Source of the DNA: Thermoplasmata archaeon | GTDB lineage: Archaea > Thermoplasmatota > SW-10-69-26 > JACQPN01 > JAJPHT01 | Reading direction: 5' to 3' | Length of the DNA stretch: 64,000 bases | Assembly (NCBI GenBank): GCA_034667685.1 | Contig: JAXDQU010000079.1 | Coordinates: forward strand, 44,107-108,106 | Part shown: positions 1,791 through 22,481 of the stretch, one piece after another | How the letters are laid out: each line of letters starts with the position of its first letter | Position numbering within the stretch: position 1 is the stretch's first letter | Notes under the pieces: model-generated | Databases searched by the model: none | What the model saw: the letters and a program-made list of their open reading frames with translations, nothing else | What the model was told of the DNA's origin: nothing | Position numbers and translations under genes: made by a program

Positions 1791-2102
1791 ATGGCTCACA
1801 CCGCCCGCATCAGCCTCGCCGGCAACGACCCCAAGAAGATCGACGGCGTCGCAGGCCAGATCAAGACCATCGCGGAGCGCACCGGCGTCCGCATCGCCGG
1901 CCCAATCCCGCTCCCGACGCGCCGCCTCAACATCCCCGTCCGCAAGGCGCCCAACGGCTCCGGCTCGGAGACGTACGACCACTGGGAGATGCGCATCCAC
2001 AAGCGCCTCATCGACATCGACGCGGACGAGCGCGCCCTGCGCCAGCTCATGCGCATCCAGGTCCCCGACTCGGTGAACATCGAGATCGTTCTGAGGACCT
2101 GA
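1791..2102 (+). CDS. rps10: 30S ribosomal protein uS10 (archaeal type)
   Basis: [11 protein letters not shown]...GPIPLPT...[26 protein letters not shown]...VNIEIVLRT. Confidence 0.96.
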
Positions 2103-2180
2103 GCCGCAGCGAAGGCCGAAGAACGGTCTCGATAGGCCGGACCGAAGTCCGGCCGTGTCGAGATCGTCCTGCGCACCTGA
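2079..2180 (+). mobile_element. Mini hairpin insert duplicating the rps10 3' end
   Basis: ATCGAGATCGTTCTGAGGACCTGA (2079-2102), inverted partial copy (2120-2133), hairpin GGCCGGACCGAAGTCCGGCC, second copy GTCGAGATCGTCCTGCGCACCTGA (2157-2180). Confidence 0.7.
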
Positions 2181-2192
2181 AATCCCATGCTC

Positions 2193-2321
2193 GGGTCCGG
2201 CTGGGGCTCCGCCCCAGACCCCGCGATGCGGAGCGCGCGGAGACAGCCTGACACATTCACCTCGTCCGTCGCGGCCTCCGCGCGCCTCGCATCGCGGTCC
2301 AGGGCGGAGCCCTGGCTGCCC
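2193..2321. repeat. Composite palindrome: two inverted REP-like hairpins flanking a CCGCGATGCG...CGCATCGCGG stem
   Basis: CTGGGGCTCCGCCCCAG at 2201 and CCAGGGCGGAGCCCTGG at 2299; inner stem resembles the 15176 and 32821 elements. Confidence 0.7.
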
Positions 2322-2434
2322 GTCTGGACGCCGGCCCTGCGCTCCATTCTTCATCTCCCCTGTCGATTCCCGCCGAGTCGGACGAGGGACGTGAGGCGAC
2401 ATTTCATATCGAGGACGCGACGCACTTCCGCCGC

Positions 2435-4323: not shown

Positions 4324-4596
4324 ATGCCGCGCGCGGCGACCTCCGGAGGAGATTCAAGCCAACCTCGTCGGCCGAGGAAGGACGTGGCCAGCGTCATGAA
4401 GAAGGTCCGCGTCACGCCGCAGGAGGCGCGCACCCTCGCCCGCCTCGCGAAGCGCCAACGGAAGACGGAGAGCCAGGTCCTGCGCGAGGCGCTCGCGCGC
4501 GCGGACCTGCTGCAACGGCGCGCTGAGGCCGTCGAGAAGCTCATCGCCATGATCGAGGACCCCAAGCCCAAGCGCGTGCCGTGGGGCCTCCGATGA
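4324..4596 (+). CDS. Ribbon-helix-helix (CopG-like) antitoxin; start may be 4384 or 4396
   Basis: KKVRVTPQEARTLARLAKRQRKTESQVLREAL; ATGA overlap with PIN gene. Confidence 0.75.
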   Translation: MPRAATSGGDSSQPRRPRKDVASVMKKVRVTPQEARTLARLAKRQRKTESQVLREALARADLLQRRAEAVEKLIAMIEDPKPKRVPWGLR

Positions 4597-4958
4597 GGAT
4601 CGTGCTCGACACGGGCGTGTTCTTCCGTCCCGCCGTGCTGCGCGAGCTGGCCGCCGCCGAGGACGCGGACGTCGTCGTGCCCGCGGTCGTGCTCGCCGAG
4701 CGCAGGCGGCAGCTCGCGCTCGCGGGCCGGCGCCCCGAGGAGCTGCTGGAGATCCTGGAGGGCAACGGCTTCGCGATCGAGCCCTTGGGCCGCGACGAGG
4801 CGATGCGCGTTCCGCTCGCCGACGACGCGCGGTGGCGCCGGCACGCGCGCGACGCCCTCATCGCCTCGCACGTGGGACCGGTCGACGTGCTCTGGACGAC
4901 GAACCCGCGCGACTTCCTCGCGTTCGGGCTCGCGCCGGCGCAGGTGCGCGGCGTCTAG
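4593..4958 (+). CDS. PIN-domain (VapC-like) toxin
   Basis: MRIVLDTGV, VLAE, DALIA, TTNPRDF. Confidence 0.88.
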   Translation: MRIVLDTGVFFRPAVLRELAAAEDADVVVPAVVLAERRRQLALAGRRPEELLEILEGNGFAIEPLGRDEAMRVPLADDARWRRHARDALIASHVGPVDVLWTTNPRDFLAFGLAPAQVRGV

Positions 4959-22145: not shown

Positions 22146-22307
22146 ATGACGCGCAGGATGGAGGACGCGCTGGTCGCCAGCGCCATCGGCCTGCTGCTCT
22201 TCGCCGCGCTCTGGAACGCGCCCGTCGCCGCGCTCCTGAGCATCCTCGTGCTCGCCTGGACGCTGGCCCGCGAAAGCACGCGCGGACGCGCGAGGCCGAA
22301 GGGTTAG
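22146..22307 (+). CDS. 53-aa two-TM microprotein with WNAP motif
   Basis: MTRRMEDALVASAIGLLLFAALWNAPVAALLSILVLAWTLARESTRGRARPKG. Confidence 0.55.
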   Translation: MTRRMEDALVASAIGLLLFAALWNAPVAALLSILVLAWTLARESTRGRARPKG

Positions 22308-22481
22308 CGCCCGCGCATCTCCCACGTCGTCTTCTTCACGAACGCGTCCATGGAGCCCTTCCGCTCGCACCCTTTTTGCGCGAGCGCGCAGCGCTCGCGC
22401 AAAAAGCGCGCCCGGAAAGCGGGCTACTTGCCCCGCATCTCCCACGTCGTCTTCTTCACGAACGCATCCATCGAGCCCTTC
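22304..22481 (-). mobile_element. Hairpin insert between two copies of the dehydrogenase 3' end
   Basis: 58-bp near-direct repeats 22304-22361 and 22424-22481; perfect 16-bp stem with GCA loop at 22372-22406. Confidence 0.75.

Follow-up and report, generated by a model that had tools for sequence, protein, structure and literature searches.

Why should the gene for an essential ribosomal protein end twice? In the genome of a Thermoplasmata archaeon from soil (GCA_034667685.1; 3.48 Mb, 99% complete), the archaeal ribosomal protein S10 gene, rps10, closes with a run of codons and a stop that recur, differently spelled, a short distance downstream, and between the two ends lies a small non-coding segment that contains an inverted copy of the gene end and a hairpin. 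The locus stands in a 64,000-nucleotide (nt) stretch of contig JAXDQU010000079.1, hereafter the window, whose numbering is used throughout. A first inspection of the letters (the sequence-only reading) had proposed that a tiny insert brought its own replacement gene end and displaced the original one. Our analysis leads us, with fair confidence, to regard positions 2080-2157 as a tail-replacing hairpin cassette belonging to a family that is or was mobile, and 2158-2180 as the displaced native end. In what follows G000 is the genome that carries the window, other G-numbers are genomes of relatives, and C-numbers are contigs of G000 that serve also as locus names; the class is represented in the collection by 21 genomes and the order by 15.

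The gene itself is intact. Its open reading frame (ORF; 1791..2102, on the forward strand like every feature of the locus) encodes 103 amino acids matching Pfam Ribosomal_S10 (E 6.8e-28), has orthologues in 40 of 41 relatives, and runs to the end of the proximal tail A (2080..2102), which is now the working gene end. With its preceding base this end (ATCGAGATCGTTCTGAGGACCTGA, 2079-2102) reads ATC GAG ATC GTT CTG AGG ACC TGA, the last seven codons and the stop, and it includes the rare codons GTT and AGG. The distal tail A' (2158..2180), which has a stop of its own, reads with its preceding base (GTCGAGATCGTCCTGCGCACCTGA, 2157-2180) GTC GAG ATC GTC CTG CGC ACC TGA and uses the commonest codons, GTC and CGC. 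The contrast in codon use on which the sequence-only reading had relied is real: GTT accounts for 1.1% of valine codons and AGG for 3.2% of arginine codons, against 59% for GTC and 78% for CGC, in a crude set of 614 long ORFs chosen for high G+C at third codon positions, a choice that exaggerates the contrast somewhat. The 23-nt tail pattern matches twice in the window and not at all in 100 shuffles, and with 0 mismatches it finds the same two sites only in the entire 3.48-Mb genome.

The spacer between the tails (2103-2156, 54 nt, containing CGCAGCGA) opens with a linker (GCCGCAGCGAAGGCCGA, 2103..2119) that lies between the stop and the inverted arm and would form the apical portion of a first hairpin. 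There follows an inverted segment, invA (AGAACGGTCTCGAT, 2120..2133), 13 of whose 14 bases (93%) are complementary to 2079-2092 and whose pairing with the opening 14 nt of the tail would include a single G.T. What stays constant in the family, the 25-nt R1 hairpin (TAGGCCGGAC-CGAA-GTCCGGCC-GTG, 2133..2157), comes last, its GC-rich stem GGCCGGAC-CGAA-GTCCGGCC occupying 2135-2142 and 2147-2154. The whole cassette, comprising replacement tail, stop, linker, inverted segment and R1, is thus 78 nt long and extends from the T of TCGAG to the G of GTG (2080..2157). Tails, spacer, inverted copy and hairpin agreed base for base with the positions first proposed for them. An assembly artefact at the rps10 end was considered and is ruled out by contigs of two source-like sequencing runs, each of which carries 1800-2450 in a single contig with 0 differences, and by an independent soil run with a contig over 2080-2180 that differs at 3 positions. 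As separate observations, contig ends of run X3 fall at 2080, 2109 and 2180, and a relative's RNA contig spans rps10 as far as its stop, which shows only that the gene is present in the RNA library, and departs from the rps10 sequence after 2104.

What had been taken for a unique mini-element at an essential gene proved instead to be one copy of a dispersed family that occurs at many gene ends. A short-word BLAST search of 2128-2162 against its own genome returned near-identical copies of R1 (TAGGCCGG..CCGGCCGTG), together with the bases right beside it, on more than 12 other contigs, from which the consensus (T/C)AGGCCGGNC-CGNA-GNCCGGCC-GTG could be written. In G000 the motif, taken with a stem of 7 bp or longer, occurs 23 times, and about 18 of these copies are compact; a strict form of the motif gave 12 matches in G000, 0 in reversed-pattern controls and 0-2 in each of 150 other genomes of the phylum, and this abundance confined to G000 looks like a recent burst at the level of the species. 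When 12 copies were aligned (11 from G000 together with the rps10 copy of G008), 99% of stem cells were paired, four pairs had changed on both sides, and the covariation score was reached by none of 500 shuffles.

The arrangement at rps10 recurs with the hairpin. A scan for the succession of gene end, inverted copy, hairpin and gene end, which the sequence-only reading had put forward as a check, found the same layout at 11 R1 copies in G000, at other genes too, with a recognisable proximal tail in each (at least 9 nt aligned at 75% identity or more). The recurring order is tail A with its stop, a linker that often begins with GCCGCAG or GCGAAG, invA, R1, and tail A'; the linker motifs also stand directly after the stop at C118, C12, C124, C19, C76, C84 and C68. 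At R1 loci that share the rps10 layout invA always ends in GA, and the second tail starts with TC and ends in a stop. The boundaries N/TC and GTG/TC, the stroke marking the junction, recur at other family members, the duplicated tail measures from 12 to about 190 nt, and TC is all that stays constant at the boundary. At C72 (tail of about 160 nt) and C84 (about 147 nt) the inverted segment matches the first bases of the tail alone, so that invA marks the boundary and not the stop; at some copies, for example C78, it matches the first bases and also the last few. All tail-linked copies of R1 share one orientation and lie 3' of stops. Elsewhere in the genome, copies at C21:19424, C39:43762, C11:31924 and C55:25127 lie inside long open frames with no recognisable duplicated tail, and some long frames end at the TAG of R1 itself, such as one of 816 codons at C98; copies inside frames may be in-frame insertions or may have supplied new stop codons.

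The duplication of gene ends is not limited to R1. We searched G000 for stop-to-stop frames of at least 80 amino acids whose last six residues and stop are repeated within 450 nt downstream, and obtained 74 cases against 10 in a reversed-sequence control. After removal of low-complexity frames, paralogues, tandem repeats, inserts longer than 130 nt and duplications of fewer than four codons, 23 tail duplications around small inserts were left genome-wide, with inserts of 30-115 nt from several hairpin families; the paralogues, tandem repeats and long inserts taken out make up 11 rows (C54, C62, C101 (two), C40, C106:125173, C34, C63, C118:31339, C72:5556, C20 and C88). One of the 23 lies in the window itself, where a 63-nt insert that holds another hairpin (GCGCTTTTTGCGCGAGCGC...) separates two copies of the end of a FadB-like gene (22307-22480, minus strand), 18 codons and stop, which differ by four synonymous and one conservative codon change and in the stop, TAG versus TAA. 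A hairpin similar to that of the FadB-like insert is also present in the rps10 insert of G010. Other dispersed repeats were encountered along the way: a family of about 90 nt (GGCTTATCGCCCCCG...) lies between duplicated gene tails at C31, C81, C88 and C111, has at least seven copies in G000 (C31:20150 region, C122, C35, C41, C105, C88 and C68) and occurs also in G003, and a separate repeat of about 65 nt has some 24 copies in G000 (C84 locus L127 915-990; C79:34389-34450).

Given that one tail of each pair is no longer read, the way in which the two tails differ is informative about their past. We compared the 11 R1-anchored tail pairs, which the R1 motif selects regardless of coding, with minima of 75% identity and a 7-bp hairpin; a looser first version of this test let in spurious low-identity alignments and was replaced. 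The 55 base differences amount to 45 synonymous and 3 non-synonymous codon differences, whereas in 20,000 trials that placed as many changes at random the non-synonymous codons averaged 37.5 and never numbered fewer than 25, so that none came down to three or fewer. Stop codons change only to other stops, and the tails switch between TCG and AGC for serine and between AGR and CGC for arginine. The proportion of synonymous changes and the restriction of stops to other stops exclude decay in place of an unread copy, and, as judged from these base changes, both tails are shown to have a history as working gene ends. Divergence forms a continuum, from none (C82, C84:8797, C53, C8) to nearly all degenerate codons (C78, 5 of 5; C9, 5 of 7). 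We considered a fixed recoding rule and rejected it, the changes being swaps among preferred G- or C-ending codons; an enrichment of A- or T-ending codons in proximal tails (13 versus 6) was unconvincing, and the use of TGA as the stop in 16 of 23 proximal and 11 of 23 distal tails, with a genome background of 61%, is suggestive only.

Which of the two tails is the newcomer is clearest at C78. Its gene body is 90% identical to that of G003 and 81% to that of G002, and over 60 bases its distal tail shares 55 with the only working end in G003; its proximal tail, on the other hand, matches the G003 end at only 37 of 60 and the working end of G002 at 52 of 60. Between the two tails 23 of 60 bases and 7 of 19 residues differ, and it is the proximal allele that the inverted segment fits. 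Since the distal tail and the body are G003-like and the proximal tail is G002-like, the proximal tail came with the cassette, and the alignment shows directly that a G003-like gene received the tail of another lineage together with the hairpins, exactly at N/TCGAC, its own tail being displaced. Other loci agree in direction. At C17 the distal tail and its flank are colinear with the empty site of G003, and the AGA and AGG codons of the proximal tail occur in 0 of 8 relatives; at C111 the stop is TAA in G003 and in the distal copy and TGA in the proximal copy; and the distal tail at C9 is similar to the empty site of G001.

At rps10 itself the distal tail is identical to the functional end of G004 (23 of 23) and lies two positions from the end in G003, an insert-free relative of the kind that the sequence-only reading had wanted aligned, whereas the proximal tail lies four positions from G003 and is identical to the functional end of the insert-bearing G001. 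These comparisons are suggestive of a distal tail that is native and a proximal tail that belongs to the insert. The polarity first proposed, with the distal copy as the original end, is accordingly supported by the rps10 tails of G004 and G003, by the rare codons and by C78, and the GTT/AGG end that we met in G001 is accompanied there by an insert and a distal copy, not by the absence of a downstream copy.

Cassettes at rps10 and at other genes recur in relatives, sometimes stacked two deep. The rps10 end is duplicated in G000, G001, G002, G004, G008 and G010, that is, in at least 6 of the 15 genomes of the order, where G012 offers only a fragment and the contig of G005 stops 141 nt past the rps10 stop; G003, whose S10 protein is 100% identical, has no rps10 insert. 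All four short-type rps10 elements have the right junction G/TCGAGAT in common, and the element of G008 has the G000 architecture with a hairpin that differs at five bases, four of which make two compensatory pairs. No second, far-off rps10 end was found in any of the 21 genomes, and none of 80 metagenome loci (S10 66-78% identical) had an adjacent duplicate, bar two chance-like matches with five mismatches. Three stacked tails are seen in the C9-type gene of G008, in the C19-locus gene of G004, and in the C84-type gene of G004 and G001; single-copy sites are those of G003 at rps10, C17, C111, C84:8797 and C78, and of G001 at C9 and C82; and decayed distal tails are found at the C9 locus in G003 and G004. 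The C19-locus gene resembles RNA polymerase subunit Rpo10. In G004 (locus L143) it is followed by three tandem units, each a gene tail and a 39-nt hairpin segment, of which tails one and three are identical and the middle one is two synonymous changes away, and the unit takes in about 20 nt of native downstream sequence.

On the sense strand, 2079-2156 is predicted to fold as two adjacent hairpins, the first formed by the tail and invA and the second by R1 (-50.1 kcal/mol, z -8.1, 0 of 200 shuffles as good, 81% of the ensemble). The tandem GA mismatch that had been noticed by eye is present in this predicted fold, in which 14 base pairs are followed by two unpaired bases, GA, on each side and then by more pairs; a K-turn was considered and rejected, there being no 3-nt bulge beside the tandem GA. 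Over a stretch of 121 nt, z is -4.69 on the sense strand against -2.25 on the antisense. Within the first 14 positions of ten tail/invA stems, non-Watson-Crick pairs comprise nine G.T against four A.C, and 7 of 9 isolated interior mismatches are G.T. Taken together, the excess of G.T and the sense-strand fold indicate that the structure has been selected on the mRNA-sense strand, in the form of RNA or of single-stranded DNA. At C19, C118, C106, C12 and C124 the proximal tail is the better match for the inverted segment, at rps10 it is no worse a match than the distal tail, and in every diverged family member examined its fit equals or exceeds that of the distal tail. We also considered whether translation might run on in frame into the distal tail; with 78 nt from tail to tail at rps10 and 70 nt at C9, no frame is common to both.

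From these data we consider it probable that a 78-nt non-coding cassette, one of a family of gene-end hairpins, lies within the 3' end of rps10, that it carried the proximal tail with it, and that the distal tail is native. The cassette would sit directly 5' of the original tail, which would be displaced behind the new stop and no longer read; as the gene stays intact, the insertion would be tolerated even in an essential gene. With the sense strand folded as two adjacent hairpins, two partners would be open to the inverted segment, namely the tail that the cassette carries and that of an unoccupied gene, and either pairing would set the N/TC bond beside the foot of R1, where the 3' end of R1 (GTG/) lies, with cutting and joining at the N/TC position at both ends of the cassette. 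As a guide of this kind, the inverted segment would direct the cassette, on reaching another genome, to the gene it had occupied before, which the carried tail would keep whole. Because the tails of young copies are identical, we take it as probable that new cassettes are born when an insertion duplicates the local tail, and a mixed history, with birth by local duplication and later spread with a carried tail, is likely. A single rule of structure-guided cutting and joining would explain both boundaries, the fact that the cassette starts with a copy of its target, its return to the same gene elsewhere and the exact junction at C78; the guide mechanism with a cut at N/TC remains our inference.

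A bolder version, which we regard as possible though doubtful, is that the cassettes are self-guided units, dumbbells of about 80 nt of non-coding DNA (or derived from RNA) that home to one gene across species. In such a unit invA would pair with the tail of the unoccupied gene and set the cut and join at N/TC, the chemistry being left to a host enzyme or to one not yet described. If true, insertion would be programmable with no protein gene in the system, and lineages would have a general way of exchanging the 3' ends of their genes.

Several observations weigh against the view that a mobile cassette brought in the proximal tail. No candidate moving enzyme was found: the Y1/HUH transposase (PF01797) is absent from all 21 genomes of the class, with 0 matches in G000, in a search whose control was positive in 6 of 14 reference genomes; the reverse transcriptase profile PF00078 has 0 matches in G000; and the best of the five tyrosine recombinases of G000, none of which is in the window, scores 97.6 bits on TIGR02249, for which the integron-integrase cut-off is 265. 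No excised or empty form appears in the contigs of four runs, although contigs drop rare variants and are uninformative either way. Some 8-9 R1 copies have no recognisable second tail, and some of these are inside long ORFs. The mismatches of invA are built in even in young members (C84, C111), which the guide model leaves unexplained. As to polarity, that of rps10 taken by itself comes from just 24 bases, and the native tail is unclear at C84 (tails 77% and 81% identical to G003, body 89%) and at C72 (81% and 78%, body 86%). Finally, there are young members with identical tails in which the identity continues past the stop, by 4 nt at C82, 6 nt at rps10 in G004 and 28 nt at rps10 in G002, and for these local target duplication fits better than an imported tail.

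This last point leads to the strongest of the alternatives, a purely local origin, in which the entry of R1 and its linker behind rps10 duplicated a long target of variable extent, from a TC site to the stop, and in which the tails were identical at first and diverged in place, no tail having been carried between genomes. The identical tails at C82, C84, C53, C8 and C111:10518, rps10 duplications that reach past the stop (a perfect 110 nt in G002 and 29 nt in G004), and the continuum from 0 differences to a change in almost every degenerate codon are what it would produce, and insertion with long variable target duplication, no other mobile elements being involved, is a pattern described by Furuta and colleagues (PMC2853133). 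The unread distal copy, however, should then decay at random, which the 45 synonymous against 3 non-synonymous changes, with stops passing only to stops, and the switches between serine codons TCG and AGC and between arginine codons AGR and CGC do not resemble. Nor can the proximal tail of C78 be a recent local copy, because it differs from its partner at 23 of 60 bases, seven amino acids included, while that partner is 55/60 identical to the G003 working end. We therefore judge that a purely local origin is unlikely for the family, notwithstanding the local births that the cassette reading itself includes.

If the hairpins were instead of use to the host, as 3'-untranslated-region structures that stabilise mRNA, terminate transcription or bind proteins, they might have spread by ordinary recombination with the duplicated tails as by-products. 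Several results already given are in keeping with such a role, namely the stronger fold on the mRNA-sense strand and the excess of G.T over A.C, the compensatory changes that keep the hairpin, and the single orientation of tail-linked copies after stops; the relative's RNA contig that spans rps10 to its stop has been cited in the same sense, with the restriction stated above. Against it, the hairpins are patchy in close relatives, G003 with its identical S10 having none at rps10, R1 has burst in one species, and copies occur inside long ORFs or stacked, while a second complete tail with its stop is left without explanation. Against Rfam, the window has no match that reaches the gathering score, and 1750-2450 gave nothing of note with E allowed up to 5. 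We hold a host-serving RNA to be a distinctly unlikely account.

Still less probable is an insert that is removed at the level of RNA, by bulge-helix-bulge splicing or other processing of the transcript, such that both tails are partly translated and selected. Coding behaviour of both tails and sense-strand specificity of the structure would follow, and many tails start with the self-complementary TCGA. The predicted fold, however, has a directly opposed 2 x 3 internal loop (TA versus GTG) at the foot of the 8-bp stem instead of a pair of 3-nt bulges with 4 bp between them, an exon-exon helix could not be drawn, and distal tails have decayed at the C9 locus in G003 and G004. The archaeal bulge-helix-bulge intron was set aside as a candidate because those two bulges are absent from the predicted fold, and a group II intron or retroelement because G000 has no PF00078 match and the locus no Rfam match.

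The scar of an integrative element, that is, of a virus or plasmid whose tyrosine integrase acted at the 3' end of rps10 and whose interior was then deleted to leave attL and attR 54 nt apart, would give a gene-end direct repeat with a recoded proximal copy of the kind seen for phage 21 and e14 at Escherichia coli icd, and could call on the five tyrosine recombinases of G000 and on a provirus beside rps10 and tRNA-Ala in another archaeon, yet it is the least plausible of the alternatives, since one hairpin family stands at 11 or more genes with a separate repeat at each, no distant rps10 end was found in 21 genomes, none of the 80 metagenome loci is duplicated, a profile search of the neighbours found no integrase within 2.5 kb of rps10, and the provirus has tRNA-Ala next to its S10 end, its use of rps10 not being shown. 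The attL/attR logic of the sequence-only reading consequently does not hold for the family, and the larger elements with the same ends that it led us to look for did not appear, there being neither a distant rps10 end nor a Y1 transposase in the 21 genomes. An exact pattern scan of IMG/VR for a viral attP returned nothing. The provirus mentioned above is IMG/VR record G041 (L033-L036), a 32-kb sequence classed as proviral, at whose end part of an S10 gene (residues 73-102) is joined by tRNA-Ala(CGC); in another archaeon, then, a provirus probably adjoins rps10 and tRNA-Ala.

With the tail-carrying cassette retained as the favoured explanation, it can be set beside systems already known. In E. 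coli, phage 21 and e14 insert at the 3' end of icd and carry a replacement end. Such integrase-type elements share with the cassette a direct repeat at the gene end, a proximal copy that is element-derived and differs mostly by synonymous changes, a native distal copy and a gene that remains functional; the cassette differs in its 78-nt size, in having neither integrase nor cargo, in its 11 or more target genes each with a repeat of its own, and in its inverted copy of the target.

The ends of IS200/IS605 elements, as typified by IS608, are laid out as guide, hairpin and cleavage site, and there, as in the cassette, a segment 5' of the hairpin can pair with sequence 3' of it, by the presumed cut. 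The palindromes of these elements, like REP/BIME, are short, GC-rich, imperfect and dispersed at gene ends, with a conserved head before the stem. The IS200/IS605 palindromes have no target duplication, a fixed target of 4-5 nt and TnpA, whereas the cassettes have long tail duplications. The REP/BIME elements are associated with RAYT transposases, according to Nunvar et al. (2010; PMC2817692). From both groups the cassettes differ in the absence of a Y1 transposase in the class and in a pairing segment of 12-25 nt that is locus-specific, not one of about 4 nt.

Classical miniature inverted-repeat transposable elements, too, are small, non-coding, multi-copy and patchy among relatives, with species-specific bursts, but the arms of the cassette are specific to the locus and match the local tail, its direct repeat varies from 12 to about 190 nt where theirs is short and of fixed length, and no parent insertion sequence was identified. 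Integron attC sites resemble the cassettes in being imperfect hairpins with conserved unpaired bases directly after a stop, recognised more by shape than by sequence and folded on one strand; the cassettes, however, form no array and have no RYYYAAC and GTTRRRY boxes, and G000 has no integron integrase. Lastly, Furuta, Abe and Kobayashi (2010; PMC2853133) describe kilobase restriction-modification units in bacteria flanked by long, variable, near-identical repeats. Their units also show long variable direct repeats against a single copy in the insert-free genome, and lack a mobility gene, and their repeats, as ours, exceed transposase footprints in length and variability and in some cases overlap gene 3' ends; the cassettes differ from what is described there in that the inserts are non-coding hairpins of 30-115 nt and the repeats end at the stop and can be strongly recoded. 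A recoded tail delivered by a non-coding hairpin of about 80 nt falls outside all of these systems, and in the literature searched we found no description of hairpin elements with recoded tail duplications.

Should the cassette reading be correct, tiny non-coding elements can invade essential genes, of which rps10 is an example, since each arrives with the gene's last codons already copied. Gene ends would be mosaic, the last 5-60 codons having a history unlike that of the rest of the gene; pseudo-duplicated ends would confuse gene calling, and rare codons at gene termini would find an explanation. Systems in which nucleic-acid pairing chooses the target show this kind of layout, a locus-specific inverted segment beside a constant hairpin, and an enzyme that reads such cassettes would have practical interest. 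As the family is abundant in one genome (about 18 R1 copies and 23 tail duplications) and variable in relatives, the question can be tested by comparison and at the bench.

Around the cassette, rps10 is accompanied by genes for TerC, a zinc-ribbon protein, a membrane protein and a thioesterase, and by a PIN pair. The last of these, at window 4324-4958, consists of a small ORF and an overlapping ORF with a PIN domain (Pfam PIN, 1.5e-05) and has the look of a VapBC-type toxin-antitoxin pair. Directly behind the displaced rps10 tail lies a long hairpin (window 2190-2325, predicted -97 kcal/mol), partial copies of which occur at C76:1002 and C31:12503, and with this hairpin and the cassette the spacer from rps10 to the zinc-ribbon gene measures 332 nt, against 126 nt in G003.

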